This document shows positions 1-22,966 of a DNA stretch of 64,000 nucleotides, in pieces (position 1 is the first letter of the stretch; every line of letters starts with the position of its first letter). The translations under genes and the position numbers were made by a program. Origin of the DNA: Candidatus Aldehydirespiratoraceae bacterium (lineage in GTDB: Bacteria > Actinomycetota > Acidimicrobiia > Acidimicrobiales > Aldehydirespiratoraceae); the NCBI GenBank assembly GCA_965205465.1, contig OZ242187.1, positions 2,454,244-2,518,243 of the forward strand. The letters run 5' to 3'. Below the pieces are notes generated by a model. That model did no database searches. It was not told where the DNA came from and worked only from the letters and a program-made list of their open reading frames with translations.

Positions 1-630
1 CGTGTTCGTAGCACGATCGCGGACACGCATCTTGAGGCGTATTTTGATGCCGCTGATCTGCAGCCAGGCGCGGACTGGGAACATGAGCTTCGCTCTCAAG
101 CGGCGTCCAGTGCTCTACTGGCTGTCCGCACTGATCTGTACGCCAGTCGGGAATGGTGTCAACGTGAGTTCCTTGTCGCGAAGCGGGCTGGCATGCCGAT
201 CGTGACGCTCAACGGAGTGTGTCGGGCCGAGGAGCGGGGATCGTTCCTGATGGACCATGTACCATCCGTGGGCTACCGCCAAATTGATGAAGACCTTCGG
301 CAGTCCAGTGTTGAGGTGGCCCTCAACCTGCTTGTCGATGCCGCACTCATGAGAGCCTTATGGGGCCTTCAGCAGGAGATGCTCAAGCAGATTGGGTTTG
401 ACTGGACTCCGTTGCACGCGCCCGAACCCGTAACGGTGCTTCCGTGGTTGCTTGAAAACCGACAGCGCGCGACCGAGGAGGGCCCACTATTGATAATGCA
501 CCCTGACCCGCCGCTAGGACCCGAGGAAGGCAGAGCGTTGACCGAACTGTTTGAGGTGGCCGGAGTTGGCGACATGGTCGACGTCGTCACACCACGCACC
601 TACATGAGCCGGACTACACGAAAGCAGTGA
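1..630 (+). CDS. TIR-domain protein, 5'-truncated by the window edge, with ~130-aa C-terminal extension of unknown function
   Basis: Frame 1 is open from nt 1; the track lists only the Met-initiated part 193..630. Translation ...AYFDAADLQPGADWEHELRSQAASSALLAVRTDLYASREWCQREFLVAKRAGMPIVTL fits the bacterial TIR pattern (D-x-x-L-x-P-G-x-x-W ... S-x-x-W-C-x-x-E). Stop TGA 628-630 overlaps the next gene's start. Confidence 0.7.
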   Translation, partial: RVRSTIADTHLEAYFDAADLQPGADWEHELRSQAASSALLAVRTDLYASREWCQREFLVAKRAGMPIVTLNGVCRAEERGSFLMDHVPSVGYRQIDEDLRQSSVEVALNLLVDAALMRALWGLQQEMLKQIGFDWTPLHAPEPVTVLPWLLENRQRATEEGPLLIMHPDPPLGPEEGRALTELFEVAGVGDMVDVVTPRTYMSRTTRKQ

Positions 631-1484
631 TGACTATTGAAGGCCTAGTTCCAAGCGACTCGCTGAGGGATGTGAGTGTCGGCCTCTCGGTCTCCGCCAG
701 CGATGACCTGAGTCGGCTTGGGCTGTCCTCGTCGCATGCCGAGCAAGCCGTAGGTGAGCTTGCTCGAGCTGTGCTGATTGCTGGAGGAAGTCTCGTTTAC
801 GGGGGACGTGTCAAGCCTTCGGGTTTCACCCAGTACCTCATGCACGAAGTACGCCGCTACGGCCGCGACGGTGAAACAGCGCTCACCCTGTGTCTTGCGG
901 CTCCCGAACACCACAAGCTCTCACACAGCGAACTCGACAAAATCGACCGAACGCTCGGGACAAGGGGACGAATCGTTTGCTTCGACCCAGAAGGTCGCGA
1001 GATCAATGGCATCTTGAGTACCAAGTCCCGTGATCCCGAGCCCTTTTCGGAAGTCGATGCCCCAGCCGCTTACAGTTCAATGCGCCGCCATCTGGCGGCC
1101 ATAACCGACGCCCGAGTCCTCATCGGTGGGAGGCTCTCGGACTTTGCTGGGGCAATGCCGGGAATCGTCGAAGAGGCGATCGTTGCGGTGGAGGCTAGGC
1201 ACCCCCTGTACGTGTCGGCAGGCTTTGGGGGTGCGGCTGCCCTCGTGGCGCAGCGGCTGCACCTCGATGATCTGCACTGGGCACCCGAAGACTTCCCGGC
1301 ACGTCCCGACGATGATCGCATCGACCGTGGTCTACAACTGCTGGACATGGCCGCTGCTACCAGCGGATGGAACGCGATGTCATGTGGATTGGATGAGCAG
1401 GGCGTTCGTCAGCTGGCGGCCACTCATCGTGCTAGCGAGGTTGCGTCGCTAGTAGTCCGAAGTCTAGCCCAGTCGCGCATCTGA
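627..1484 (+). CDS. Stand-alone SLOG-superfamily (LOG/TPALS-like) Rossmannoid nucleotide-binding protein
   Basis: GTG 627 or ATG 630 overlaps the TIR stop (GTGATG). Glycine-rich strand-loop motifs are typical of LOG/SLOG: VGLSVSAS, AGGSLVYGGR, VLIGGRLSDFAGAMPGIVEEA, YVSAGFGGAA. No extra effector-like domain in its 285 aa. Confidence 0.6.
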   Translation: MMTIEGLVPSDSLRDVSVGLSVSASDDLSRLGLSSSHAEQAVGELARAVLIAGGSLVYGGRVKPSGFTQYLMHEVRRYGRDGETALTLCLAAPEHHKLSHSELDKIDRTLGTRGRIVCFDPEGREINGILSTKSRDPEPFSEVDAPAAYSSMRRHLAAITDARVLIGGRLSDFAGAMPGIVEEAIVAVEARHPLYVSAGFGGAAALVAQRLHLDDLHWAPEDFPARPDDDRIDRGLQLLDMAAATSGWNAMSCGLDEQGVRQLAATHRASEVASLVVRSLAQSRI

Positions 1485-1559
1485 TCTGTCGGCGAGATCC
1501 CAAGTTCGGGCAGGCGCAGACCGCTACCATCTGATCGACGGTCTCTTCGAGGGAGTTTG

Positions 1560-2642
1560 ATGGCGCCAAGGGGTTCAGGTCAGCGACCGGCCGTGACGGA
1601 GGGGTTCGCCTGCTACTGGGCCTTCGCCGCCGAGCGACAGCAGGTCTATTATCGGAGGTTAGCGAGCGCGGGCGGCCCCCTCAGCAACGACTCCGTCATC
1701 ACGACCCACCGATTCACCAACGCCTATCGAGCCTCGGACCGGGTGAGCCAGTTCCTCATTAGTGAGGTCCAGTACAACCGGAAGTGGGGGTGGCTCGACA
1801 CATTCGTTCGGACTCTGATCTTTAAGATCTTCAACCGCATAGACACGTGGCGGTACATAGTCGAGCACGCCGGAGAACCAAGCTTGGATACACTTCAGGA
1901 GCGTCGTATCGATCAGGTTATGGCGACGATCGCTGGGGTGCGCCCGCTGTATTCGGCTGCCTACATCATGCCGCCCCCCAGGTCGGCGTCAGGACCCAAG
2001 TACGTACGACATCTGGAGCTGATCCGGCGGATGGTGGGTGACGGCGCACCCTGGAAGATCCAGTCGGCGCCCAACATGGCTGCCGCGTTCGGGGTTCTTC
2101 GCCGTTACGACTCCATCGGCGACTTCCTCGCCTACCAGTTTGTGACCGATCTCAACTATTCGCCGCACCTGTCGTTCTCCGAGACAGAGTTTGTCGTTCC
2201 CGGCCCTGGTTCCCTCAGAGGGCTCCGGAAGTGCTTCTCTGACCCCGGCGCGCTTTCTGACGATGAGCTCCTTCGATGGACTTGGGAGCGCCAGGAGGAT
2301 GAGTTCGCCGCTCGTGGCCTACAGTGGCATGGGCTATGGGGAAGGCCGCTCCAGCTGGTGGATGTGCAGAACCTCTTCTGCGAACTCGACAAGTACTCCC
2401 GCGTCGCCCTACCCCAACTCTCCCGGCACGCACCGGGTAAGCGGATCAAGCAGCGCTATCGCCCCTCAACTGAGCCGATGACAGCCTGGTTCCCCCCAAA
2501 GTGGGGACTTAACGACGCAGTTACGGCCCAAGACCTTTCAGAATGGACAAATCTGTCGCACCCTGTGGACCCAGACTCGATAGTCCAGTCTTCGGGCTTC
2601 GGCTCCGAGTCACTCGATGAGCCGAAGCTCCCGGGTATCTAG
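1560..2642 (+). CDS. Putative nucleotide/DNA base-hypermodification family protein (5-hmdU DNA kinase helical domain / aGPT-pyrophosphorylase-like)
   Basis: ATG 1560 is preceded by GAGGGAG (1549-1555). N-terminal FACYWAFAAERQQVYYRR...THRFTNAYRASDRVSQ resembles, from memory, the ER..I..R + RFxNxxRxxDRvT signature of that family. The coding call is solid; the function is unverified without an HMM search. Confidence 0.45.
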   Translation: MAPRGSGQRPAVTEGFACYWAFAAERQQVYYRRLASAGGPLSNDSVITTHRFTNAYRASDRVSQFLISEVQYNRKWGWLDTFVRTLIFKIFNRIDTWRYIVEHAGEPSLDTLQERRIDQVMATIAGVRPLYSAAYIMPPPRSASGPKYVRHLELIRRMVGDGAPWKIQSAPNMAAAFGVLRRYDSIGDFLAYQFVTDLNYSPHLSFSETEFVVPGPGSLRGLRKCFSDPGALSDDELLRWTWERQEDEFAARGLQWHGLWGRPLQLVDVQNLFCELDKYSRVALPQLSRHAPGKRIKQRYRPSTEPMTAWFPPKWGLNDAVTAQDLSEWTNLSHPVDPDSIVQSSGFGSESLDEPKLPGI

Positions 2643-3515
2643 ATTGCACTCGACGACGCCGCCCTTGGCTTCGCAGAGTCGTGGGAAGATCTCGAAAGCC
2701 TGGGTGTAGGCACTTCGCCACGCGATTAGGGGCTGACTTGCGACTTCGAGTCCTCGAACGGTCCTCTGCACATGTCTTAAGAGGTCCCACCCGATGGCAT
2801 CAGGCTCGAAGCAAGACGGTTCCAAGTAGTTGAAGACGAACGCTGCGAGGCCCTCTTCGACGGCGATGGCGCGTGCGCCGTCCTCGGTGCGGTCACGCTC
2901 GCCCACATCTTTCCGCTTCGCTCTCATCAGCGCTCGAAGGACAGGTGACCAACCCAAAACCGTGGCGTGCGCAAGGTGGATGATGTCGTGATAGCGGTAT
3001 CCATCTTCGATTGCAGCGTTGTCGTCGAGCGGGTCGCCTAGCTGGGCGGGGGCTTCCTTCCGGTCACTTTCTCGCTTGACTCGCTCAGCTAGTTCGTCCT
3101 GTGGAACCATTCGGACGACAGGGATCTCACCGGACTGTTCCTCTTCAAACTTAACCCGCATGTACCGGAGTAGCTTCTGACGGTCATACGGGTGGTTGTC
3201 GTAGTCAGGAAGCGGCGGCATCGCCGATGAAAACAAGTCGCCCGCCTTGTTTAGGTTCTTCTCAGCGACATCATTGAGATCCAGATTCAAGCGGCGGGCA
3301 AGCAACGCGACGTACCAGAGCAAGTCTCCAAGTTCTTCACTGACGCGATTTTCGAAGCCGGAAATCGGACCACCCTCACGGAAGAACTTCTTGGCTTCGG
3401 AGACCACCTCGCCTGCTTCGCCCGCAATCCCGAAGAGAGCTATCCGTATCGCCTTCTTGTCACTCCCGAGATCATCGGTTGCTGCCGCTCGATCAGCGAA
3501 TTCCTGCAAGTCCAT
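2610..3515 (-). CDS. MazG-like all-alpha NTP pyrophosphohydrolase fused to an unassigned ~190-aa C-terminal domain
   Basis: The N-terminal ~100 aa carry MazG metal-binding helices (FGIAGEAGEVVSEAKK ... SEELGDLLWYVALLA). Convergent with the previous gene; the 3' ends overlap by 33 nt. Confidence 0.75.
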   Translation of the reverse strand: MDLQEFADRAAATDDLGSDKKAIRIALFGIAGEAGEVVSEAKKFFREGGPISGFENRVSEELGDLLWYVALLARRLNLDLNDVAEKNLNKAGDLFSSAMPPLPDYDNHPYDRQKLLRYMRVKFEEEQSGEIPVVRMVPQDELAERVKRESDRKEAPAQLGDPLDDNAAIEDGYRYHDIIHLAHATVLGWSPVLRALMRAKRKDVGERDRTEDGARAIAVEEGLAAFVFNYLEPSCFEPDAIGWDLLRHVQRTVRGLEVASQPLIAWRSAYTQAFEIFPRLCEAKGGVVECNLDTRELRLIE

Positions 3516-3972
3516 CGTTTACTCCTCGTTACGGCCCAGCCCGGTCGGCAGTCTAAACGCATTCTCACTGACCAATGAGCGACCTTGAAGGCGAAGGTAG
3601 CTTGGGTTGCAGACAGGGCAGGACGTGTTGTTATACGGTCGTCGTGAAGGAGACGCTGGAGTGGCCCTAGCGCTGTCTAAGAACCTTGGGGTGCACGTTC
3701 TGTTGAGACAGGATGGTGGTGTGGGAGTGGCGCGGGTCGCGGTGGAAGAACAGTCGTGGCCCCGCAACCTTGTCACGGTGCCATAGGTCGTCAGCCAGGC
3801 GGTGTCACACCCGTCTGCCATCGTTGGGTTCTCGATTCGGCGAGTTCTATGACGTGCCAAATGCGATTTCCCCGCAAGGCCGGGATCGAGGCAGTTGATC
3901 CAATACCAGGCTGCTCGGGTATCGCCCGACTCGCAGCTGTCGGCTACTACTCTCCGTGGAAGGACCCCAAGC

Positions 3973-5042
3973 ATGGCCTATAGAACCATCGACCTCTTTG
4001 CAGGAGCGGGCGGGCTCACCGCAGGCTTCTGCTGGCTCGTGACAGCACAGGAGTTGAACTCTACGATCCTGTCTTCGCGGTGGAGCACGAGCCGGCGGCT
4101 GCAGCCACCTACAAGGCCAACTTCGGCATACACGTCCATGACGGGGACATCGAGTTCATGGACCCCAGGGTGTACCCCAGCGCCGACATCATCATCGGAG
4201 GGCCGCCCTGTCAGGGATTCTCTCCGCTGGGCCGTGACCGCGACCCCGACTCAAAGGCGGTACTCAACGGATTGTGGGAGCACTTCCTTGCCGCAGTCGT
4301 GCAGGTGCGACCGCGAGCGTTCGTGATCGAGAACGTCCCTCAGTTCCAGCGCTCCGCCCAGTTCAACGAGCTATTGGACCGGATGGCTAATCACCCCCTC
4401 CTGTCGCAGTTCGGCTGCGGCTACGGGGTACTGAATGCCGCGGACTACGGGGTGCCGCAGACCAGGAGACGGGGCATCTTCATGGCGGTCTACAAACAGT
4501 CCGTGCCTTGGCCTCCTCCGCCGACGCACGGCGACTCCCCGATGTTCGAGCAGCCGTATCGCACAGTGCGCGACGCGATCTCCGACCTGCCGGCCGAACC
4601 CACCACGGATCAACCCACCACAGCCGACGACGGCTCCCAGGATCTCCATATCCGACGCAACCCGCGGGAAACCTCTCTGCAGCGTTACCGGGCTATCCCA
4701 CCGGGAGGGAACCGCTTCGATCTGCAGCGCAATCGGCCCGACATCACGCCGGCCTGCTGGCTCAACAAACCCACGGGCACTACTGACGTGATGGGTCGGA
4801 TGTGGTGGGATAAACCCGGGCCGACGATACGGACCGAGTTCTTCAAGCCTGAGAAGGGACGTTACCTACATCCTGAGCACGACAGGCCTATCACCCACCG
4901 CGAGGCCGCTCGGCTCCAGAGCTTCCCCGACACCTTCATCTTTGAAGGATCCAAGATCGAGATCGCTCGCCAGATCGGGAACGCTGTCCCGCCAGTGCTC
5001 GCCCGTGAAATCGCCCTACACCTCGCGCGCATCCTCGAATAA
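3973..5042 (+). pseudogene. DNA (cytosine-5) methyltransferase, copy 1, frameshifted after motif I
   Basis: Same gene as 21852..22922. ATG 3973 gives MAYRTIDLFAGAGG. One G is missing between 4031/4032 relative to copy 2, so the frame-1 ORF ends at 4326. The remaining motifs (GGPPCQGFS, ENV, VPQTRRR, GNAVPP) lie in frame 3 (track ORF 4080..5042). Confidence 0.8.
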
Positions 5043-5086
5043 CGCAAGAATCCCGGTGGTTGACGTCCCGCTCGACCTAGCTGCCC

Positions 5087-6223
5087 TCAGTCTGCCGGTC
5101 CGGACTCGATGATCTGTCGGCTCAACCCGAGATAGAGGTCACGGTCGGGACTCGGCCCCGATTTTATTTCGGCACCAGCAAGTCGCCACCACCCATCACC
5201 CAGCCAGACGCTGTGATCCGTTCCATGCTCGGCAGGGACTACCCGGCAAGAAACCAGTTCCCCCTTGTAAGGAACAGGAAGATCCAATCCTCGGGCGATG
5301 TGGGGGTCAGCCCCCTGGTGGCCCAGGATCAAGAACCCCTCGCCGCCAAGGTTTTTGGTCAACCTCGCATCACGCGCCCGCTTCATCGGGTCCTTCTGCT
5401 GGGCGACTGTCACCATGGTCGACCGGTCGATGATCTCGCGCTGGATCTCACGCAGCAGGGCGTTCACGCGCCCCTGACCCGAAGGATTCAGCAGGATTTT
5501 GCGACGGCTCTCTTGGCTCAGCCGCCGGAGAGGGTTCGGCGGCAGGTCCTGCAGCCCACCCCAGAGCCAATAGGTGCTGTCCATCCCGTCGTCGTTCAGA
5601 CGCCGCTTGTTGTCCCGGTTGTACTGCCTACGCCTCCGACCAGAGTTGTCGGTCTTGAATTTGAGCAGGTCATCGCTGATCTGAATAACACCGGCGGCCC
5701 ATTGGGCATCGTCGTCGCTCATCCATACCAGGAGTGCGAGGTGGTCGGCGGTTCCGGATTGCTCGTGGTCGTCGCATAGGTACATCTCCATCGGGATCTC
5801 CCAACCGCCGAGGTCCTTGGAGAACTTGCAATCGACATCGTGCGCATTGATCTCCCAGTCGAGGTCGGTGCCTTCGGAGATGTCGAATTCGATTGTGAGT
5901 CCGAGTTCCACTTTGGTGCCCAAGTGGGTCTTCTCCGTCTTGTTGAGTTGTTGGTAGCACCATCGGCGCGTGCGCTGCCCGTCGAGCAGTTCATCCAGGG
6001 AGTCGCGCAGTACCCAGGCGAATCGCTCGCGACCGTCTGGTTGCTCCTCGAACCAGCGGACAAGACCCGCTAGGGCGGGGCCAGGCGATGAGGTCTGTTC
6101 GCTGGGAGGGCGTCGATTGGTGGACATCCGCGCCTTCGGGTCGTCAGCGAAGTCATCTGGCGGCGCACCACGGGACCCCCTCGATCTTGTCCTTCTGCGT
6201 CGCATGGAGTCAGGTCGGGCCAC
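5087..6223 (-). CDS. NaeI-family type II restriction endonuclease, copy 1 (intact)
   Basis: Blocks DGQRTRRWCYQQLNKTEKTHLGTKVE, VDCKFS, VTVAQQKDPMKRARD and ILGHQGADPHIARGLDLPVPYKGELVSCRVVPAE match my recollection of R.NaeI. Arg-rich N-terminal leader; alternative start M33 at 6127. Confidence 0.8.
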   Translation of the reverse strand: MARPDSMRRRRTRSRGSRGAPPDDFADDPKARMSTNRRPPSEQTSSPGPALAGLVRWFEEQPDGRERFAWVLRDSLDELLDGQRTRRWCYQQLNKTEKTHLGTKVELGLTIEFDISEGTDLDWEINAHDVDCKFSKDLGGWEIPMEMYLCDDHEQSGTADHLALLVWMSDDDAQWAAGVIQISDDLLKFKTDNSGRRRRQYNRDNKRRLNDDGMDSTYWLWGGLQDLPPNPLRRLSQESRRKILLNPSGQGRVNALLREIQREIIDRSTMVTVAQQKDPMKRARDARLTKNLGGEGFLILGHQGADPHIARGLDLPVPYKGELVSCRVVPAEHGTDHSVWLGDGWWRLAGAEIKSGPSPDRDLYLGLSRQIIESGPAD

Positions 6224-6296
6224 ACAGCGGGTCTACCGGGACTTTCGTGGTTTTGACAACTCTGCACGCCGCGCTGACGGGATTGTCGACTGGGAA

Positions 6297-6782
6297 TTAG
6301 CGCCTGCTACCAACGGTTGTCTCGCTCTGAGGTCGTGCCGTCCCCTCGGTTGAAGCGCGGACCGACTCCTGGACTCGGTCGGCCACTGACTCGGGGTCTT
6401 CGTGCTCCCAGAACCGCAGCACCGTCCACCCGGCCCGCTGCAGGTAGGCCGTAGTTTCCATGTCGCGTTCTACGTTGCGGGCGATCTTGTCGGCCCAGTA
6501 CTCCGAGTTGGTGGCGGGTTGCGTGTGGTGCTCTGGGCAGCCGTGCCAGAAACATCCGTCCACGAACACGACGATCCGGCTCTTCCGCAGCACCAGATCA
6601 GCGGTACGGGGCAGATCCGGCTCGGGACGGACCGAGACCCTGAATCGGATACCCCGTCGATGCACCGCAGAGCGCACAGCCAACTCGGGCTTCGTATCGC
6701 GGCTTCGATTGCCCTGCATCGACTTGCGGTTGCCGGGCGAGGAAGCCCAAGACGTGCTCCCAGAGCCTTCGGCCACGTTCAA
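6297..6782 (-). CDS. vsr: Very-short-patch repair endonuclease (Vsr), copy 1
   Basis: RSRDTKPELAVRSAVHRRGIRFR ... VVFVDGCFWHGCPEHH ... NVERD ... GWTVLRFWEHE are classic Vsr motifs. Confidence 0.85.
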   Translation of the reverse strand: MNVAEGSGSTSWASSPGNRKSMQGNRSRDTKPELAVRSAVHRRGIRFRVSVRPEPDLPRTADLVLRKSRIVVFVDGCFWHGCPEHHTQPATNSEYWADKIARNVERDMETTAYLQRAGWTVLRFWEHEDPESVADRVQESVRASTEGTARPQSETTVGSRR

Positions 6783-7182
6783 GACAATAATGCATCAGTC
6801 GATCCGACACGGTGTCTCCGCAGTGCTGCCCGCTATTGCCTTGCGGATCCTCGTGGTCCTAAACGTAAGCAGACCCCGGCCACTAGCTTCTTGGCTGCGA
6901 TCGGGCGTATCCTTGCTGGTTATTCCCCGGTGTCGCCAATGCCTCGTGGCATGCGCCCGGGGTATTGACTTTTTGAGGCTTGGTGGGACTGGCGCTGGAG
7001 TGCGCTTAGAGAGTCAACGATCAGGCGGAGCGCATGCACGATGCCCGTCAAGCTGTGGGTATGGTGTTGGCGGAGTAACGGACTCTGGGCGGCGGCCGGG
7101 GGTTGAGCGGACGTTGGAGAGCGGGGCGCGGAATGAGAACGTCGTGCGATGTTGACTTGCCGATAGTGCAAGGGGAGCCGGT

Positions 7183-7629
7183 GTGATGGAAAAAATCCCG
7201 CCGCCACCACTGCCAAGACGGGTCGATCATTACTCGGCAGCGTTCAAAGTGGTCGCTGAGGAACTTGCCAATAGCAACCGACTGGCGTGGGCTGGGATGC
7301 TGGGGGCGATCCGGTATCTGCTCGAATTCAAGCGATCTGCAGTTGCACCAGATGTTCGTTGGCACATCGTGCAATCCGAGTTTGGAAAGCACTGCGGAGA
7401 GGTCCGCTGGCCTGATCCAGATACCCAATCCGAACATCCTAACGATGCATGGCGAGGCCTGTTCGTGGCCCATCCCAACGACGACTGGTACGTGTTTACC
7501 GTGCTCGGCAACAAGTCCGGAACTGGTCGTAGCGGCAACGACTGGTACACCTCCGCAGTGACACGTTCCGATGAGATCACCCGCGCCGCAATCGAGGCCC
7601 TCAACCTAGCAGACTTCCCAAGATCGTAA
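7183..7629 (+). CDS. Putative RelE/ParE-superfamily (Gp49/HigB-like) toxin
   Basis: The C-terminal pattern FTVLGNKSGTGRSGNDWYTSAVTRSDEITRAAIEAL resembles the G-D/N-K-S-G...WY...A...Y tail of Gp49/HigB-type toxins. It sits upstream of an XRE antitoxin with a 33-nt gap (toxin-first order). Confidence 0.45.
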   Translation: MMEKIPPPPLPRRVDHYSAAFKVVAEELANSNRLAWAGMLGAIRYLLEFKRSAVAPDVRWHIVQSEFGKHCGEVRWPDPDTQSEHPNDAWRGLFVAHPNDDWYVFTVLGNKSGTGRSGNDWYTSAVTRSDEITRAAIEALNLADFPRS

Positions 7630-7662
7630 AGGCATAGCTATACTCCGACGCTAGGGGCAACT

Positions 7663-7983
7663 ATGACAAGAGAACCAGACGACACGGAATTCTTCAGCGT
7701 CGACGATCTACCAGACGCCGATCCAGCAGCAGTCGAAGCCGCCTACAACCAGATTGTGGCCCGCCACGTATTGGTGAACCTGCGCGCCGGCAGTGGTATG
7801 AGTCTCGAACAAGTCGCCAAGCGGCGTGGTGTGACCAGAGCCGCGGTGCACCAGCTTGAGATCCGGCCGCTCGGCAAAGTCCGGATCGCCTCATTGATCG
7901 GCTACCTGCAAGCGGTCGGCTACGACGTCGACGAAGACTGGGTCGCCCGAAGCCTTACCGCCGCTCTTCCAGCGCGTAGCTGA
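7663..7983 (+). CDS. XRE-family helix-turn-helix antitoxin-like protein, copy 1
   Basis: HTH core LRAGSGMSLEQVAKRRGVTRAAVHQLE. Paired with the upstream toxin-like gene. Confidence 0.65.
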   Translation: MTREPDDTEFFSVDDLPDADPAAVEAAYNQIVARHVLVNLRAGSGMSLEQVAKRRGVTRAAVHQLEIRPLGKVRIASLIGYLQAVGYDVDEDWVARSLTAALPARS

Positions 7984-7984
7984 G

Positions 7985-8157
7985 GCGCGCGCCTTGTTGA
8001 GCTGTTGGTAGCACCATCGCCGTGTGCGCTGCCCGTCGATCAGTTCGTCCAGGGAGTCCCGGAGCACCCAGGCGAATCGCTCGCGACCGTCTGGTTGCTC
8101 CTCGAACCAGCGAACAAGGCCCCGTAGGGCGGGGTCGGGTGACGAGGCCTCCTTCAA
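7985..8157 (-). pseudogene. Internal 5' fragment of a third NaeI-family endonuclease gene
   Basis: Encodes ...PALRGLVRWFEEQPDGRERFAWVLRDSLDELIDGQRTRRWCYQQLNK, equivalent to residues ~49-104 of the full genes. It is joined directly to the sequence that normally lies upstream of vsr. Confidence 0.75.
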
Positions 8158-8556
8158 GACAATAGTGGATCAGCCGATCCGACACGGTGCCTCGGCAGCG
8201 CTGCCCGCTCCTGTGTTGCGGGATGCTCGTGGTCCTCGAAATAACCGGACCGGCCGCGAGGTTCTTGGCTTCGATCGGGCGTATCCTTGCTTGTAACTCC
8301 CCGGTGTCGCCAATGCCTTCGTGGCATGCGCCCGGGGTATTGCCTTTTTCTGGGTGGGTCTGGGGAGATCGTCTGGTGACCGCGACTGTCACACCCCTGC
8401 TGTGTGCTTATGGCGTGGACTCTCCAGGAATTGATCGGAAGGCGCGAGGGGTGCAATTGCGTCTTGGTGATGGGCAGAGGGTGCGCGCCCAAGCCGACCG
8501 CAGCGGGCAGACTGAGGGTGTGACCGTTGGCTCCGCGATCTCGCTCTTCTCCGGCG
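8158..8556 (+). repeat. Third copy of the vsr-dcm2 spacer plus the first ~12 codons of the second methyltransferase (stub)
   Basis: Nucleotide homology by eye to 24662-24950, including GTGACCGTTGGCTCCGCGATCTC.CTCTTCTCCGGCGC (VTVGSAISLFSGA). Homology ends at about 8556. Confidence 0.7.
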
Positions 8557-8619
8557 CAGGCTGGCGGGGTGGAGCACGCACGCGTCGTAAGTGGAGTCGA
8601 ACGACACGGTGTGGGCCGA

Positions 8620-9093
8620 TCAGTATTCGAGGTCGAGGGATTGGGCTTCTGCGGTGAGTTCGTCGGCGATGGCGCGGCGTTCGGAGTCGTCGTCGTGCTT
8701 GTACTTAAGGAGATCGGCGAGCAGGACTCGGCGCCGGTTGCCGACTCGCCTATAGGGGATCTTGCGTTCCTCAAGCAGCTTCACGAGGTAGGGACGAGAC
8801 ACGTTGAGCAAGTCTGCAGCTTGCTGAGTGGTCAACTCGGCATGAACCGGCGCGACGGTGACGGCGTTGCCGTTGGCGATCTGGGCCAGGATGTCAACGA
8901 GCAGGCGGAGCGCATGCCCTGGAATCTCCAAAGTGGTGTCGGTGTCGTCTGCCTTGAGCGAGACCGAAGCGGCGTTCACCGTGGGGTGCCGACGGAGAAA
9001 CCGATCCAGGATGTCGACCGCGTCGGCCGCTTGGTTTGCTGTGGCCTCATCAGGGATCGCGAGCTGATGATCCAGTACAGCAGGGGGAGTCAT
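8620..9093 (-). CDS. Excisionase-type (HTH_17/MerR-like) DNA-binding protein, copy 1
   Basis: LTTQQAADLLNVSRPYLVKLLEERKIPYRRVGNRRRVLLADLLKY. Start chosen at MTPPAVLDHQ by comparison with copy 2 (29003..29476). Confidence 0.65.
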   Translation of the reverse strand: MTPPAVLDHQLAIPDEATANQAADAVDILDRFLRRHPTVNAASVSLKADDTDTTLEIPGHALRLLVDILAQIANGNAVTVAPVHAELTTQQAADLLNVSRPYLVKLLEERKIPYRRVGNRRRVLLADLLKYKHDDDSERRAIADELTAEAQSLDLEY

Positions 9094-9167
9094 CTTGTTA
9101 CCTCCTCTGACACCTGTGTAGCGAGTCGTGGACACGGTGAGTATGTCGATCGGCTACTTGGAGCATG

Positions 9168-9232
9168 TATCGTAAGTGATATTCAACACATTCGTAATAA
9201 AAATATTATTCAAACTAAATGAAATAGACGAA
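9168..9232. promoter_or_regulatory. AT-rich tract upstream of the HTH gene (candidate promoter/operator), copy 1
   Basis: GTAAGTGATATTCAACACATTCGTAATAAAAATATTATTCAAACTAAATGAAATAG stands out in an otherwise GC-rich context. It lies 75-140 nt upstream of ATG 9093, and a paralogous tract sits at 29551-29612. Confidence 0.4.
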
Positions 9233-9247
9233 TCACGGTTCCTGTTG

Positions 9248-9362
9248 TTACGTTGCTGCTTGGTAGGCGTCGAGTACGAGGGTGTGGAAAAGGTGCAGGG
9301 CATGCTCGGACAGCGGCATGGACTGGTACACCTCCGCAGTGAGACGTTCCGATGAGATCACC
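9248..9362. other. Patchwork scar: 3' end of a Rieske oxygenase gene (9248-9311) joined to a ~45-nt toxin-gene fragment (9318-9362)
   Basis: 9248-9311 is homologous to 29634-29697 (encodes ...SEHALH.FH.LVLDAYQAAT on the minus strand). 9318-9362 matches GACTGGTACACCTCCGCAGTGA.ACGTTCCGATGAGATCACCCGCG at 7539-7583 and 30878-30922. Confidence 0.65.
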
Positions 9363-10233
9363 CGCGAGACATCGGTCGAGGACTGTGACGAGGACCACCA
9401 CGTCGACCACCTGTTGCAACGTGAGAAAAGCCGACGCAACAGTCGATGGAACTTCCTCGGAACCTCGCGCTAGCCGTCCAGCTTTCCAACGAGCGGCGGA
9501 GCTGGCCGGCGCCGTCGCGGATCACGAGCCGGATGGCCTTGTTGTAGCCGATGATCAGGTTCCGGGCAGCTTGGGTGGTCCAGGGACCGGTGGGGTTGGT
9601 GGTGATCGCGGCGAGGTGCACTCGTCGGGTGTCGATCTCGATGAAGAACAGCACATGGAACCGCCGCATGGTGACGGTATCGACGCAGAAGAAGTCGGTC
9701 GCCACCAGGGCGTGGGCTTGGCTAGCAATGAACTCGCTCCAGCTCGGCCCGGTCCGGTTCGGGGTGGGCTCACGTCCGGCATCGCGCAAGATCTTCCACA
9801 CCGTCGACGCGGCAAGACGGTGTCCGAGACGGCATATCTCTCCATGGATGCGTCGGTAGCCCCAGGTTGGGTTCTCTGTGTCGAGGCGCAAGACCAGCCG
9901 ACGAAGCTCCGCTGGTGTGGGAGGGCGCCCGGTTCGGGGCCCAGGTGGTTGGGTCCAGTGGCGGGCGACGAGGTGTCGGTGCCAGCCGATCACGGTGGCC
10001 GGTTTCATGATCAGCATCACACGGGTAAGCCGCTGCCGGTCGAACGCACGCGAGAGCACGGCCAGGATGGTCCGGTCCGTCGGGGTGAACCTCGGCCGCT
10101 CGACTTGTCGCTGCAGGATGAGAATCTGATGGCGAAGGGCGAGGATCTCGGCGTCACGCTTGTCACCGGATACCAACAGCAGTCCGAGACGGGCTATCAG
10201 GAGCCGAAACAGGTGTGAGATAAGCGATGACAC
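9358..10233 (-). mobile_element. rve (integrase-core, IS3/IS481-superfamily) transposase gene, C-terminally degenerate
   Basis: ILALRHQILILQRQVERPRFTPTDR..., NPTWGYRRIHGEICRLGH, VATDFFCVDT...FFIEIDTRRVHLAAIT. The usual third-acidic-residue region is replaced by non-homologous sequence after ...VIRDGAGQ. No terminal repeats recognised. Confidence 0.65.
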
Positions 10234-10504
10234 GGCCGGTCACGGTACTGGTCGCCAACGCTGTGACCTGCAGCGACGCGTTCTCGGCACCCTCAGGCTG
10301 CAGCCGAGCGAGGTGACAGGATTTTCCAATACCGATCCATGCTCACGAACGCTGGTCATGGCTCCGACCTCTCGGCGATTGAAGCAGAGGGATGGAACCT
10401 CGACCAGACGGATTTCCAGCAAGAGACCGAGACGACAGCTGAGCCTGATGGCGAGCAGTACGCCCAGAGTGTCACTTATGCTGTCTACCTCTTTCGACGC
10501 TGAT

Positions 10505-11392
10505 CTACCCGCCGGCCCACTGTTCGAAGGCTGGACCGGCCGCTATGGGTCCGTCTGATCGATCAGATCGTGGGTGTACGCGGTCATTGACGGTAGCGAC
10601 TGTGGCCTCGTCAACGACTCCCGCGAGGGCATAGGAGGCGAGTTCGATTCCTATGCTTCGTGGTGTGGCGAATAGTTCGCGTACGTAGTGGAGCGCGCGC
10701 TGGGTTGTCTCTGCGGACCGGTCGTCACTGAGTAGGAGCTTCGTTGTTTGGGCCATGTCGACGATAGCCGTTGCGTCGAAGAGGCGGTACACATCGCCGG
10801 CATCCTTCGCGATCAGTCGTTCGGGGGTCTTGAGGCGTTCTCCGAGCTTGTGGGTCTTGGCGACCAGCAGCGCGGCGGCGCCGGCGACGTTGACGACAAT
10901 TCGGCGATTGTCACCCTCTTCGAGCGATGTGATCTCGAACGGGTCGAGGTCGACAACGGCGCCTTCAACTCCGTCGCTCTTGCGGGCAGCCGTCTTGCCG
11001 TGGCCGCGGGGGAGTCGAGCGCCACGTCGCCCTGCTCTGGGCACGAGCTGGGCGGGGACGATGAGATCGACCGGCACGGTGACGTCGCCGTCGAAGCCAG
11101 GGCGTTCGAATCGTTGCTGCCAGATTCCGGGCTCGCCAGGAAGCACGAATCCTGCTGCCGCCATGGCATCGCCGAGGAGAGGAGTATCGGCAAGCTGGTC
11201 AGGGTTGATGACGAGGTCAGCGTCGGTGGTGAAGGGCTGGTAGGTCGGTAAGCGGCCTTCGGTCCGCAGGTACACGGCCTGGGCGCCGATAAGCACGACT
11301 GCGTCGATGTGGGGCTGGAGGGCAACGAGCGCGTCGAGCAACACCCGTCGAGCTTCGATGTATTCGATCCGGGGTCTGGCGTTGTCGGTCAT
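10505..11392 (-). CDS. Nucleotidyltransferase-fold toxin-like protein (AbiEii-like)
   Basis: VVLIGAQAVYLRT...FTTDADLVI (G-x-x-A ... T-x-D-x-D-l NTase motif). Start ATG overlaps the stop of the upstream gene (ATGA at 11389-11392). Confidence 0.5.
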   Translation of the reverse strand: MTDNARPRIEYIEARRVLLDALVALQPHIDAVVLIGAQAVYLRTEGRLPTYQPFTTDADLVINPDQLADTPLLGDAMAAAGFVLPGEPGIWQQRFERPGFDGDVTVPVDLIVPAQLVPRAGRRGARLPRGHGKTAARKSDGVEGAVVDLDPFEITSLEEGDNRRIVVNVAGAAALLVAKTHKLGERLKTPERLIAKDAGDVYRLFDATAIVDMAQTTKLLLSDDRSAETTQRALHYVRELFATPRSIGIELASYALAGVVDEATVATVNDRVHPRSDRSDGPIAAGPAFEQWAGG

Positions 11393-12462
11393 GGTAGGCC
11401 CGGTTGAGCGGTGAGGGAGGTGGCTTGCCAGCGTGGGGCTTTGCGGCGCATCCAGTCGAGGAGGGCGTCGCCTTCGGCCGGCATTCGGCCGGGGCCGGTG
11501 AGGCAGTCGATTGCCGCTTGCGCAGGGGAGACGTAGATGGCGTTGTCCTTGGTCCAGATGCGTTCGAACACGATCTGATCGTAAGGCAGGGCTATGACAA
11601 CGTTCCCTCCATTTCGGACAGGACGCAGCCGCGCCCCCACCGCGATCCGTTCAGGGTCCTCGGCGTAGACGACTGCGATCTCGGGCGCGGCGACAGACAC
11701 CAGCGGCGAGGCAGCGAACGATCCGGTGATGGCCCATCGCTTCGTGTTGCTCGCGGCGAGATCTTCGCGGAACTGTTCGGGCCCGGCGGACGCGATCCAG
11801 TTGGTCGTCTCGTTGGAATCGAGCAACGAGTAGCCGGCGGTGATCTGGCCTAGCAGCGACTCCCATTCGACATGTTCAACGGGCCCTCGAGGTACACGGC
11901 TGATCAGCAGTTCGTCGGTCAGCGCACTCAGTAGCCTTGAGACGTAGCCAGCATCAGCGTCGATTGCATGGGCTAGCTCACTCACTCCGTAAGGGGGTTG
12001 CACTTCGGCGAGCGTGCGCAGCAGAGCCCAGGCCCGCGGGCCGCGAATGTTCAACCGCGGCACAGTCGGGGGAGACGGGTCGCGCTGTGCTCCCTCGGTG
12101 CGGAAGACAATCCCGGGTCGCTTCACTACGGCACTGACGTTGCCGGTTTGGTCGACGTAGCCGTATCCGATGTCTTCGAGAAGCTCGCGGCTGCGGGGAC
12201 TCAGCCATTCGCCGGCGATGATCGTGTCGACCTCCGGCTCAGGAAGCGCGACGACTTCGCGGGGCGTGAGATCTCTGCGGACAATAACGGTCAGCTCGCC
12301 TGAGACGTCGTCGGTTGAGGTGACCCGAATGACGCCGCCGTCGTCAGAGCGTCGACCAATCTCGATCTCCCAATCCGGTGGCGCGAGCGAGTCGAGCGAC
12401 TCTACGGTCGCGGCGAACAGACGTCGTGTTGCTTGAGAGACAGGTTTGCGTGCCATGAACAA
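11389..12462 (-). CDS. AbiEi-like winged-helix antitoxin/regulator
   Basis: wHTH segment YGVSELAHAIDADAGYVSRLLSALTDELLISR. Translationally coupled upstream partner of the NTase-fold gene, the canonical AbiEi-AbiEii order. Confidence 0.45.
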   Translation of the reverse strand: MFMARKPVSQATRRLFAATVESLDSLAPPDWEIEIGRRSDDGGVIRVTSTDDVSGELTVIVRRDLTPREVVALPEPEVDTIIAGEWLSPRSRELLEDIGYGYVDQTGNVSAVVKRPGIVFRTEGAQRDPSPPTVPRLNIRGPRAWALLRTLAEVQPPYGVSELAHAIDADAGYVSRLLSALTDELLISRVPRGPVEHVEWESLLGQITAGYSLLDSNETTNWIASAGPEQFREDLAASNTKRWAITGSFAASPLVSVAAPEIAVVYAEDPERIAVGARLRPVRNGGNVVIALPYDQIVFERIWTKDNAIYVSPAQAAIDCLTGPGRMPAEGDALLDWMRRKAPRWQATSLTAQPGLP

Positions 12463-12563
12463 GTCGCCGATCGAGGCAAGTCCGGAGTACCCGGGCCGAT
12501 TCTGAGGGACGTGCTTAGACTATCGACTTGTTTGGAACAAACAAAAGAACTTTGTAGGCACGA

Positions 12564-12586
12564 CTTCTAACGGATCTTCTAACGGA
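12564..12586 (+). repeat. Tandem 11-bp direct repeat CTTCTAACGGA x2 (1-nt spacer)
   Basis: 12564-12574 and 12576-12586 are identical. They lie ~120 nt left of the tRNA-half core and could be recombinase arm-type sites. Confidence 0.35.
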
Positions 12587-12702
12587 CGGTCTGAAACAGG
12601 CTGTTATCCACAGGGACACGCCGACACGTTCATCAGGCATAACACCAGGTCAACCGCATTTTCCGGCACGAATCGACACTCACCGATATGGGCTTTCGCG
12701 AA

Positions 12703-12747
12703 CTCATAACCCGAACGTCGCGGGTTCAAATCCCGCCCCCGCCACCA
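12703..12747 (+). tRNA. Orphan 3' half of a tRNA-Met(CAU) gene (anticodon loop to CCA); not a functional tRNA, probable att core/scar
   Basis: CTCATAACCCGAACGTCGCGGGTTCAAATCCCGCCCCCGCCACCA comprises the CAU anticodon loop, CCCGA stem strand, T-arm GCGGG-TTCAAAT-CCCGC, acceptor strand, discriminator A and CCA. The sequence 5' of 12703 cannot pair (GCGAA where TCGGG is needed; no GGCGGGG acceptor strand). Confidence 0.75.
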
Positions 12748-13021
12748 CCAAAGCCTAAGTCCGAGCACACGCCCCGACTTGGGCTTTGCCGCGTTCAGGG
12801 CTGATGTTCTATTGGACTTTCTAAATGTGCGGTTCTGAAACGACCGTGTGCAGTCCCGGTGAATGCCTAACGCGCTGGCTCCGCTAGCAAGGTCCAACTC
12901 GGCGCCCCACACTCAACGGTGCTGAGCCTTGATCAGGTGCTAGCTACAAACCTAGCGCAGGATTCATCACTCCGTTAACCGTCGGTTGCTATCAGATGTC
13001 ATCGGGTGCTATCATTCAGAT

Positions 13022-15046: not shown

Positions 15047-15272
15047 GGGAAGAACACCGTCACTCATCGGAGCATCGTTAGGACGGCCCAACCAGGTCAC
15101 GTGCGGCCGAAAGTCGGCTTGTAGCCGTTGCCACGAGGACATCCTGAAGGGAGCGACCTGTTACGACGTCCCACGGGTCAACAAGCCGCACGCTGCCACG
15201 CGAAGGTTCTGTCAGGCATGTTTCGACGACGTCCTGGAGCAAACGAGGCGTGACCTCGACAGCTTAGGCTGA
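15039..15272 (+). CDS. Small zinc-ribbon protein
   Basis: 77 aa with C-x5-C-x2-C-H ... C-x16-C-x2-C (CGRKSACSRCH ... CYD ... FCQACF). Its ATG overlaps the helicase stop by 8 nt. Confidence 0.5.
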   Translation: MPKGRTPSLIGASLGRPNQVTCGRKSACSRCHEDILKGATCYDVPRVNKPHAATRRFCQACFDDVLEQTRRDLDSLG

Positions 15273-15276
15273 ATCG

Positions 15277-15426
15277 ATGACGCGACGAGAGAGTCCGCGG
15301 ATGCTGGTGGTGGCGGAACTTCAGCAGCACTGGGTGTCGCAAGTGCGCGCCTGGAACGAGCTGCTCCAACTCTCGGCGTCGAGCAGTCGCGAGCCAGACG
15401 ATGACAACAGGCTTCCTCTACTTTAG
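15277..15426 (+). CDS. Possible 49-codon micro-ORF (below the track's 60-aa cutoff)
   Basis: ATG 15277 lies 4 nt after the zinc-ribbon stop. MTRRESPRMLVVAELQQHWVSQVRAWNELLQLSASSSREPDDDNRLPLL*. About 70% G/C at third positions by hand count. Overlaps the next start by 26 nt. Confidence 0.25.
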   Translation: MTRRESPRMLVVAELQQHWVSQVRAWNELLQLSASSSREPDDDNRLPLL

Positions 15427-18316: not shown

Positions 18317-18321
18317 CTTAG

Positions 18322-21469: not shown

Positions 21470-21851
21470 AGCGTTGCTCCGATCAGTCGGTCCAGCAACG
21501 AGCATCCTGTGCCCGACCTATCACGGTCGGATTCAGCGCGTGGGTCAGATCGGGTCGATCGCGCGTTTGCGTCAGGGGCCAAGCGAGCCTGTTGGTAAAG
21601 GTCGGGGGTCGAGTAGGGCGAAGCTCTGCTCCGAGGATCGCTGTCGCTGCGACTCGTTGACGCGGGGTCTGCGGGGCGGTGTCACACCCCTCTGTCATCG
21701 TTGGGTTCTCGATTTCGGTGAGTTCTATGACGTGCCAGATGCGATTTCCCCGCAAGGCCGGTGTTGAGATAGTTGATCCAATACCAGGCTGCTCGGGTAT
21801 CGCCCGGCTCACAGCTGTCGGCTACTACTCTCCGTGAAAGGGACACCAACC

Positions 21852-22922: not shown

Positions 22923-22966
22923 CGCAAGAATCCCGGTGGTCGACGCCCCGATCGACCTAGCTGCCC

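Follow-up and report, generated by a model that had tools for sequence, protein, structure and literature searches.

A recurrent gene cassette of TIR, SLOG, HMUDK_hel and MazG-MazG_C proteins in Candidatus Aldehydirespiratoraceae and its possible role in anti-phage defence

Genes of the cassette

This study concerns positions 1-3515 of a 64,000-nucleotide stretch of contig OZ242187.1 (assembly GCA_965205465.1, positions 2,454,244 to 2,518,243 of the forward strand) from a Candidatus Aldehydirespiratoraceae bacterium of the class Acidimicrobiia. The whole stretch is called the window here. The segment holds four genes encoding the C-terminal half of a TIR protein, a stand-alone SLOG protein, an HMUDK_hel protein and a MazG-MazG_C fusion protein, and it was found that homologous genes recur together in other genomes, along with two more genes to the left of the TIR gene. 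The segment is the right-hand two thirds of a conserved, mobile six-gene cassette. With a probability of roughly one in two, this cassette is an anti-phage system in which a TIR/SLOG layer is added to an enzyme-pair core. The four open reading frames (ORF1 to ORF4) are listed below (aa, amino acids).

1..630, plus strand: ORF1, 3′ half of a long TIR_2 gene (residues 209-417 of 417), by Pfam TIR_2 and identity to protein P0241
630..1484, plus strand: ORF2, SLOG cluster 2 protein, 284 aa (ATG 630) or 285 aa (GTG 627), PF18163
1560..2642, plus strand: ORF3, HMUDK_hel protein (formerly aGPT-Pplase clade 1), 360 aa (ATG 1560), or 361 aa from the alternative TTG 1557, PF18723
2610..3515, minus strand: ORF4, MazG-MazG_C fusion, 301 aa, PF03819 (34 bits) and PF18722 (168 bits)

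ORF1 is open in frame 1 from base 1 of the window to the TGA stop codon at 628-630, and its translation gives 209 residues. Since residues 209-417 of P0241 (417 aa) are 100 % identical to this translation, ORF1 encodes the second half of a TIR protein of 417 aa, whose N-terminal 208 residues lie to the left of the window. Inside the window are the greater part of the TIR domain and some 120 conserved residues at the C-terminal end. This truncated piece scored 27.9 bits against Pfam TIR_2 (cut-off 28), and the full-length homologue in locus L001 scored 34.3 bits, above the Pfam threshold. The stretch bearing the WCxxE motif is DLYASREWCQREFLVAKRAG, which includes ASREWCQREF, and the glutamate of the motif is kept in at least 95 % of the long TIR proteins (45 homologues aligned). 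The hexamer GTGATG at 627-632 joins ORF1 to ORF2; the TIR stop codon overlaps both GTG 627 and ATG 630. The overlap between the long TIR gene and the SLOG gene is 1-4 nt in every locus where the genes are split. The first-pass annotation of this DNA, made from the letters alone, had described a TIR ORF open to the window edge and translationally coupled to a SLOG gene. Both points were borne out by the unbroken frame, the TIR_2 match and the recurrence of the overlap in homologous loci, and full-length relatives of the TIR protein are now available (P0241 and the L001 homologue). In L018, a Ca. Aldehydirespiratoraceae metagenome-assembled genome (MAG) that is nearest to the window among species representatives (94.8 % DNA identity), the long TIR consists of two overlapping ORFs (8740-10001), an apparent frameshift.

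ORF2 matched the Pfam family PF18163 (LD_cluster2) with 163 bits (E = 1e-47, cut-off 25.3), and its AlphaFold model has a mean predicted local distance difference test score (pLDDT) of 92.8, with a Rossmann-like core and four C-terminal helices. A profile match above the gathering score together with a Rossmann-like fold places ORF2 in the SLOG superfamily. When the model was searched with Foldseek, it resembled the SLOG-like MHR1/2 region at the N-terminus of TRPM, LOG enzymes, DprA, and the BcThsA SLOG domain with bound 3′ cyclic ADP-ribose (3'cADPR; 7uxs, 6lhx, 8bto; probability 1.0, E ~1e-3). A PDB search with the SLOG profile gave nothing meaningful, and the PADLOC ThsA models did not match ORF2. 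The conserved residues include YGG, GFTQ, R153, PG..EE (P178-G179, E182-E183) and GFGGAAA. Equivalent positions are present in LOG enzymes, which are catalytic, as well as in the SLOG of ThsA, which binds a ligand without catalysis, so this SLOG may be either a sensor or an enzyme. Neither Pfam nor the AlphaFold model revealed an effector domain in ORF2, whose 284 residues make up the SLOG domain and a short helical tail. Both the SLOG/LOG-like nature of this protein and its lack of an effector had been proposed from the letters alone, and both agree with these matches and with the size of its close homologues. A homologue search with the SLOG protein returned 242 proteins, nearly all stand-alone and about 284 aa long, from Acidimicrobiia, including Ca. 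Aldehydirespirator and the sponge-associated Ca. Poriferisodalis. Gene calls of homologues begin at the ATG (284 aa), which makes ATG 630 the likelier start codon of the gene (630-1484). This also explains why looking up the exact ORF2 sequence with the GTG start gave no match.

Three loci (L014, L015 and L017) have a stand-alone SLOG cluster 2 gene without any partner of the cassette. In L014 and L017 (about 4700-16500), the SLOG gene follows a gene for an SNF2-type helicase of 1216-1604 aa, and in L017 it is followed by genes for two DUF1156 proteins, a DISARM-like context. A divergent gene for a 293-340-aa protein without a Pfam match adjoins the partnerless SLOG gene of this type.

ORF3 follows the SLOG gene after a gap of 72-75 nt. 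No terminator was found between the two genes; a promoter and terminator scan of window positions 1-4100 gave nothing above the shuffle expectation. The ORF matched PF18723 with 295 bits, and protein P0121 is 100 % identical to it. This agrees with the earlier reading of a 361-aa protein of a hypermodification family with an RFTNxYRxxDRV signature; the stretch in question is HRFTNAYRASDRV. The family is very large, with at least 7,988 significant homologues among 8,000 scored candidates. Its members include a protein of DS-4 (working name NTTI), an Escherichia coli system composed of a thymidylate-synthase-like (TS-like) protein, a dNMP kinase, HMUDK_hel, TIR and Nmad2, which is listed as a validated defence unit by DefensePredictor (Science 2026, PMC13092281). 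The residues R-F-x-N-x-x-R-x-x-D, G-P-G and a Cys-Glu pair are invariant in the family and are shared with phage and E. coli members; the pair (C275-E276, in CExDK) is the same in the window protein, the DS-4 protein and the phage members. Among the phage relatives, an M6 gp55-type protein is encoded beside a P-loop 5-hydroxymethyl-deoxyuridine (5-hmdU) DNA kinase, and a Brevibacterium phage protein beside a thymidylate synthase and two glycosyltransferases. The model of the window protein is all-helical (pLDDT 89.3). A PDB sequence search gave no match for ORF3, and its top fold match in the PDB by Foldseek was a weak, though specific, one to PaMx11 gp46 (8z2m; probability 0.89, E = 0.44), followed by low-probability matches to helix-hairpin-helix glycosylases. 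PaMx11 gp46 is a 5-phosphomethyl-dU (5-PmdU) glycinyltransferase whose Cys247 attacks C6 of the pyrimidine (PMC11472151); C275 of HMUDK_hel may or may not be its equivalent.

ORF4 lies convergent to ORF3, and the two genes overlap by exactly 33 nt (2610-2642), an overlap that recurs in homologous loci. The convergent MazG fusion and its 33-nt 3′ overlap had been noted before, and the fusion is now backed by the two profile matches listed above. The profile scores of these proteins lie well outside what chance would give, and all that the first-pass annotation stated on the sequence itself proved correct. The N-terminal MazG part belongs to the all-alpha NTP pyrophosphohydrolases and has kept its metal-binding motif (ExxE ... 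ExxD) intact, with E33, E60/E61 and D64 invariant; the motif and the profile match together identify ORF4 as a MazG protein. In a PDB profile search, only the MazG part found relatives, namely the small MazG proteins 2q73 and 2q5z and DCTPP1/RS21-C6, and no relative of MazG_C was found. The invariant motifs of MazG_C are YRxHDxxH ... LGWSP..R ... KR ... D..DG.RA..EE, and this domain is called a predicted kinase by DefensePredictor (PMC13092281). Matches to PHROGs were limited to ORF3, the MazG part of ORF4 and the small TIR described below. A tblastn search against phage genomes found no homologue of ORF4, and on this ground an origin of the enzyme pair from a prophage hypermodification cluster was rejected.

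The region to the left of the window was seen through two contigs from one ENA sample. Contig L054 is 99.92 % identical to window positions 1-7431. In it, genes for a ThsB-type TIR (154 aa) and Nmad2 (219 aa) lie divergently upstream of a long TIR gene of 421 aa. About 25 other genomes likewise have divergent genes for a small ThsB-type TIR and Nmad2 at this place. Wherever both genes were detected, they are neighbours and run in the same direction. In L001 (87 % SLOG identity), the small TIR (155 aa) gave a full-length match of 191 bits to the PADLOC ThsB model PDLC00418. The first-pass annotation had suspected that the unit continues to the left of the window, which is the case, and its count of four genes must be raised to at least six, since the ThsB-type TIR and Nmad2 genes lie there.

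Conservation and linkage of the cassette

Two samples of homologous loci were compared. The SLOG-centred sample comprised 40 loci, with one genome per species, whose six-frame ORFs were searched with seven reference proteins. The HMUDK_hel-centred sample was the best 80 of 541 hits in a metagenome scan with a diverse HMUDK_hel alignment. At the species level, 17 of the 22 loci with a stand-alone SLOG gene (77 %) have an HMUDK_hel gene within 10 kb, and most of these 17 also carry the long TIR, ThsB, Nmad2 and MazG-MazG_C genes. The six-gene set was found, with unrelated flanks, in Acidimicrobiia (47-89 % SLOG identity), Marmoricola, Mycolicibacterium and JGI metagenomes. At 57-58 % HMUDK_hel identity, Mycolicibacterium (GCA_009729185.1, L044) and a JGI metagenome still have the same six-gene layout between different flanks. 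Thus, as had been supposed from one genome, the four genes of the window recur as a unit and are not chance neighbours.

The order of the genes is variable in some loci. The HMUDK_hel gene lies beside Nmad2 in L006 and upstream in L011, where the MazG gene directly follows the SLOG gene, and the HMUDK_hel-MazG pair of L012 is 4 kb distant. In L116, L121 and L134, every gene points the same way and abuts or overlaps the next, in the order ThsB-like, MazG-MazG_C, TIR, long TIR, SLOG, HMUDK_hel, ThsB and Nmad2; this run of genes looks like one operon. It was considered whether the linkage between SLOG and HMUDK_hel is purely synteny by descent. This was rejected as the sole explanation in view of the unrelated flanks, the shuffled order and the scattering of linked members on the HMUDK_hel tree. 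The tree, a crude neighbour-joining tree of 101 sequences without support values, serves as a hint only. On it, HMUDK_hel proteins linked to TIR/SLOG fall into at least five clades and are interleaved with members whose loci have the HMUDK_hel and MazG-MazG_C pair alone, a pattern that suggests repeated gain or loss of the TIR/SLOG link.

The cassette is horizontally mobile and is built of three dyads: HMUDK_hel with MazG-MazG_C, long TIR with SLOG, and ThsB with Nmad2. Among the 80 HMUDK_hel loci, the partner is MazG-MazG_C only in 35, a TS-like protein only in 15, and TIR/SLOG/Nmad2 genes in 10, while 20, many of them short contigs, show none. For the 17 loci whose flanks reach 4 kb or more on each side, the corresponding numbers are 8, 2, 5 and 2. 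On two metagenome contigs (L079, 42-2018; L107, 3070-5064), HMUDK_hel and MazG-MazG_C form one ORF of 659-665 aa. Thus, the enzyme pair is an autonomous dyad that is far more widespread than the cassette. In about a fifth of the HMUDK_hel loci, the TS-like partner replaces MazG-MazG_C, and the two are almost mutually exclusive. Loci with the TS-like partner include L058, L060, L062, L088, L089, L097, L126 and L128, and a TS-like gene is also present in L131.

An asymmetry is evident from these counts: a stand-alone SLOG gene is nearly always near the enzyme dyad, while the dyad usually occurs without TIR/SLOG. The dyad is autonomous, more widespread and in some genomes a single fused protein, so TIR/SLOG forms an accessory layer rather than the centre of the unit, where the first-pass annotation had placed it. 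The occurrence of TIR/SLOG in only 10 of the 80 HMUDK_hel loci (5 of the 17 with long flanks) is as expected for such a layer.

The long TIR and SLOG domains are also found fused to each other (L117, L131, L133, P0286, P0082 and Actinomyces). In Planctomycetota, Myxococcota, Verrucomicrobiota and Kuenenia, single chains of 1220-1800 aa combine TIR, SLOG and a C-terminal CHAT caspase-like protease. The effector of the window SLOG may plausibly act in trans through the neighbouring enzymes. This idea fits the distribution because a CHAT protease is present in cis elsewhere, whereas HMUDK_hel and MazG are neighbours in Actinomycetota.

Several particulars of the fused forms were recorded. TIR_2-SLOG-CHAT loci are L026, L033, L034, L036, L037 and L041, and their sources include a deltaproteobacterial MAG. 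The L036 chain has an additional C-terminal calcineurin-like phosphoesterase domain, and two ThsB-like TIR genes follow the TIR-SLOG-CHAT gene of L037. In Actinomyces, the TIR-SLOG fusion gene is followed by a second TIR gene.

The presence of an off-window ThsB gene makes a simpler reading possible, in which ThsB is the signal maker and TIR plus SLOG are a ThsA-like NADase. The ThsB signal would be bound by SLOG and would switch on the long TIR, a split analogue of ThsA that depletes NAD+, and the enzyme dyad would be a separate, co-travelling system. Several observations are in line with this. The small TIR scores highly against ThsB, the fold of SLOG agrees with that of the 3'cADPR-bound SLOG of ThsA, the long-TIR glutamate is conserved, and TIR and SLOG are tightly coupled or fused, like SIR2 and SLOG in ThsA. 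The ThsA SLOG itself maps to PF18163 by HHblits in the DefensePredictor tables (PMC13092281). The parts also live apart, the dyad standing alone in most sampled loci, even as a single-protein fusion, and TIR-SLOG occurring without the dyad in L009, Actinomyces and L037 (the CHAT form with its two ThsB-like genes). Against this reading, the full set is kept over 37-89 % protein identity, with varied flanks and reshuffling, the genes of all dyads are interleaved in the co-directional operons of L116, L121 and L134, and 77 % of stand-alone SLOG genes have HMUDK_hel nearby. Moreover, DS-4 was cloned and scored as one unit with HMUDK_hel, TIR and Nmad2. Co-travelling of independent systems is therefore regarded as unlikely, and one cassette with a TIR/SLOG layer on an enzyme-pair core is preferred.

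Alternatively, all components might be consecutive enzymes of one biosynthetic pathway to a modified nucleotide, either a toxic analogue or chain terminator (viperin-like) or an alarm signal. In such a pathway, TIR would act as an N-glycosidase or in base exchange, SLOG in base release or transfer, MazG in the conversion of NTP to NMP, MazG_C as a putative kinase, and HMUDK_hel in chemistry at C5 of the pyrimidine. Every component does belong to a nucleotide-processing superfamily, and HMUDK_hel is in every case partnered by enzymes that handle free pyrimidine nucleotides (MazG-MazG_C or TS-like, with the dNMP kinase in DS-4), while the phage relatives are located in base-hypermodification clusters. 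SLOG cluster 2 retains the LOG-like Gly-rich, Arg and Glu positions (R153, P178-G179, E182-E183, GFGGAAA), but these are presumably present in the non-catalytic ThsA SLOG as well and are no proof of catalysis. Some SLOG and TIR domains are viewed as signal-generating enzymes in a review of the Aravind group (PMC9503650). On the other hand, the dyad persists without TIR/SLOG in most genomes, which would be odd for obligatory steps, and in other phyla TIR-SLOG is joined to a protease, not to nucleotide enzymes. A single pathway seems less probable than the co-travelling of separate systems.

The surrounding defence island

To the right of the cassette lie genes for a C5-cytosine methyltransferase (Dcm), an NaeI-type endonuclease and Vsr. 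On the left side in L054, a gene for an 845-aa TIR-NB-ARC-TPR (STAND-type) protein is situated directly beyond Nmad2 (3960-6497, minus strand), and a GmrSD-type gene (1-369) lies farther to the left of it. The locus is therefore a defence island (Dcm/NaeI/Vsr, TIR-STAND and GmrSD). At the same left position, L001 has a DUF4238 gene and a gene for a second ThsB-like TIR (180 aa), so the cassette varies at its left border.

The island setting bears on whether the cassette serves immunity at all. It might instead modify bases of the cell's own DNA, sanitise non-canonical dNTPs, or be a remnant of a prophage hypermodification cluster. The phage relatives of HMUDK_hel do serve DNA hypermodification, and MazG enzymes are classically house-cleaning enzymes, the solved relatives including dCTP pyrophosphatase 1. 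However, the cassette has no PF18748 kinase, PF18724 transferase or hydroxymethylase, its surroundings are free of phage structural genes, MazG_C found no homologue in phages, and two or three TIR genes accompany it throughout. The setting in a defence island, the patchy and mobile distribution and the defensive score of DS-4 also speak against such roles, and a function outside immunity is considered very improbable. A six-gene cassette directed against phages remains the preferred reading of the locus.

Several other features of the island were noted. The methyltransferase gene (window 3895-5042, plus strand) is split into 3895-4326, with the N-terminal MAYRTIDLFAGAGG, and a remainder at 4080-5042, while it is one intact gene of 356 aa in L054 and L135. 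The lone gap in the 7.4-kb L054 alignment probably marks this frameshift. The break may be genuine, making the gene a pseudogene, or may stem from the assembly. A second pair of Dcm and NaeI-type genes is located 17 kb downstream (window 21834-24103; a 362-aa methylase on the plus strand and a 378-aa NaeI on the minus strand), and two DDE transposase genes (441 and 436 aa; window 16802-19752) lie between the two Dcm/NaeI copies. With a second Dcm copy present, the frameshift in the first methylase could be tolerated.

The island also contains partial direct duplications (window 5936-6096 versus 7990-8150, and 6771-6984 versus 8146-8359). The duplicated sequences are a 161-nt 5′ piece of the NaeI gene (89 %) and three segments beyond vsr (84-90 %), which recur about 1.4-2 kb downstream, and they give rise to an ORF at 7891-8157 for an 88-aa N-terminal fragment of NaeI. 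These duplications look like rearrangement scars. Farther to the right, a gene at 12986-15046 (plus strand) encodes a protein of 686 aa in which an HTH_17 domain at the N-terminus is joined to a helicase of the ResIII/DEAD type, and it is preceded by an HTH_17 protein gene at 8620-9135 (minus strand). The HTH_17-helicase gene may be one more gene of the island that serves defence or a mobile element.

Proposed role and comparison with known systems

The gene order of the cassette in this genome is Nmad2 and ThsB-type TIR, both pointing to the left and off-window, then long TIR_2, SLOG cluster 2 and HMUDK_hel, all pointing to the right, and finally MazG-MazG_C, pointing to the left. HMUDK_hel and MazG-MazG_C would form the core and, judging from their homologues, would act on C5 of pyrimidines in (d)NTPs or DNA. 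The MazG part is predicted to hydrolyse (d)NTPs, possibly 5-modified ones, and HMUDK_hel, as kin of phage thymidine-hypermodification proteins that has retained the invariant Cys-Glu pair, would be its partner. Upon infection, TIR would make an NAD-derived nucleotide, which would be bound by the effector-less SLOG. The SLOG-ligand complex may then switch on or direct the enzyme pair, which would starve or corrupt phage DNA synthesis. The identities of the domains, the conservation of the cassette, its division into dyads, the gene fusions and the homology to DS-4 are shown here, whereas the defence role in this organism, the order from signal through SLOG to enzymes, and the chemistry are inferred. 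The specific proposal that a TIR signal is read by a free SLOG protein, which turns on a pyrimidine-C5 enzyme pair that corrupts or withholds the building blocks of phage DNA, is a tentative one, with the odds against it.

Several observations weigh against this interpretation. The enzyme dyad does not depend on TIR or SLOG, as it is found without either in 35 of the 80 loci. Conversely, TIR-SLOG occurs without the dyad in L009, in the CHAT fusions and in Actinomyces, and lone SLOG genes occur in L014, L015 and L017. The co-occurrence samples are biased to close relatives (best 80 of 541; one genome per species), and the fold similarity between HMUDK_hel and gp46 is weak (E = 0.44). PADLOC and NCBIfam recognise none of the four window proteins as a known defence component. 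DS-4, for its part, is without SLOG and MazG, and its phenotype is weak and concerns lambda only.

Known Thoeris-type systems have the sensor and the killing domain in one protein, whereas here a separate small SLOG protein is linked to an enzyme pair. If the proposal is true, the cassette would be the first Thoeris-type system with sensor and effector as separate proteins. It would also represent a new class of immune effectors, in which base chemistry of the phage hypermodification type is turned against phages. The enzyme pair, with MazG-MazG_C or the TS-like partner, is very common and predicted to be defensive, and DS-4 is its sole validated relative. The cassette thus offers a handle both on the role of hypermodification-type enzymes in bacterial immunity and on the relay of a TIR signal through a free SLOG adaptor. 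The Mycolicibacterium version (L044) may be an experimentally tractable start.

The cassette shares with phage thymidine hypermodification systems (M6, ViI and PaMx11) the Pfam family of ORF3, which is that of M6 gp55-like proteins, together with the Cys-Glu and GPG residues, and the top PDB fold match of ORF3 is the related transferase gp46. The phage clusters consist of a P-loop 5-HMUDK, a gp55-like HMUDK_hel and an amino-acid:DNA transferase, and the gp55-type protein was dispensable in the in-vitro reconstitution (PMC8989533, PMC11472151). In contrast, the cassette has a cellular, TIR-linked setting. Neither the P-loop 5-hmdU kinase (PF18748) nor the amino-acid:DNA transferase (PF18724) was found among the cassette proteins, while both were found in the PaTs-2 phage control, and no hydroxymethylase was found in the cassette.

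As in type I Thoeris, the cassette has a TIR protein with the catalytic glutamate, which is present in ORF1, and the off-window small TIR is a full-length match to PADLOC ThsB. The SLOG has the same fold as the BcThsA SLOG. In contrast to ThsA, where the sensing domain is joined to a killing domain, ORF2 has neither SIR2 nor another effector and is coupled or fused to TIR instead, and Nmad2, HMUDK_hel and MazG-MazG_C have no Thoeris counterpart. None of the four window proteins matched PADLOC, and among them NCBIfam gave only a faint ThcB4/FxsC match, for the TIR; the region is therefore no catalogued system.

Type III Thoeris (van den Berg et al. 2024), as described in two other sources, comprises several ThcB TIRs and a SLOG-NucS effector (10.64898/2025.12.03.692087, 10.64898/2026.01.22.701046). 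The cassette resembles it in having several different TIRs and one SLOG-containing protein, but the SLOG lacks a NucS nuclease domain. ORF1 scored 18.5 bits against NCBIfam ThcB4 (cut-off 220) and is not an orthologue. Membership in type III was rejected for these two reasons. Yirmiya et al. 2025 list 29 Thoeris configurations, each with a TIR and an effector; in the parts covered here, those with SLOG are SLOG-SIR2, type III, SLOG-Patatin and SLOG+4TM, and no MazG, HMUDK or Nmad2 context appears (10.64898/2025.12.03.692087). Because the test for an effector domain joined to the sensor fails, the cassette is not a catalogued Thoeris type.

The TIR-SLOG-CHAT proteins contain a TIR_2 and LD_cluster2 pair whose homology to ORF1 and ORF2 is seen with phmmer (E = 1e-11 to 1e-20). 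They differ in carrying the protease in cis, whereas the window has two separate genes, and no CHAT domain was found in the window region or in L054. Type IV Thoeris (TIR with a caspase-like protease) offers a comparison for these fusions, which are known here from ORFs alone; no publication characterising them was found.

Burroughs et al. reportedly defined the SLOG clusters in 2015, predicted TIR-SLOG systems, and also predicted a defence role for MazG-, NMAD- and aGPT-Pplase-type domains. The later DefensePredictor work lists MazG, MazG-C, aGPT-Pplase and NMAD as predicted, unvalidated defence domains and credits Burroughs et al. 2015 (PMC13092281).

DS-4 is the nearest validated relative. 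Both systems have a stand-alone HMUDK_hel protein (PF18723 in both) with adjacent genes for a small ThsB-type TIR and Nmad2, which in the cassette lie off-window (in L054 and most homologous loci), and in both HMUDK_hel is paired with enzymes of free pyrimidine nucleotides. The identities are 27 % over 325 aa for HMUDK_hel (BLASTP E = 4e-33), 37 % over the full length for the TIR and 52 % for Nmad2. An environmental locus (L128; HMUDK_hel, TS-like, ThsB and Nmad2) resembles DS-4. The sole phenotype recorded for DS-4 is a weak one against lambda, with a -log efficiency of plating of 0.93 (~8.6-fold) and smaller plaques (PMC13092281, Table S7). DS-4 has a TS-like protein and a dNMP kinase where the window has MazG-MazG_C, and it is without the long TIR_2 and SLOG that are both present in the cassette. 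Since the partner enzymes differ and a TIR-SLOG pair is added, the cassette is not DS-4. The first-pass annotation had named no characterised system with this layout. A validated relative does exist in DS-4. The cassette combines known kinds of components and was probably foreseen in part by earlier comparative-genomic work.

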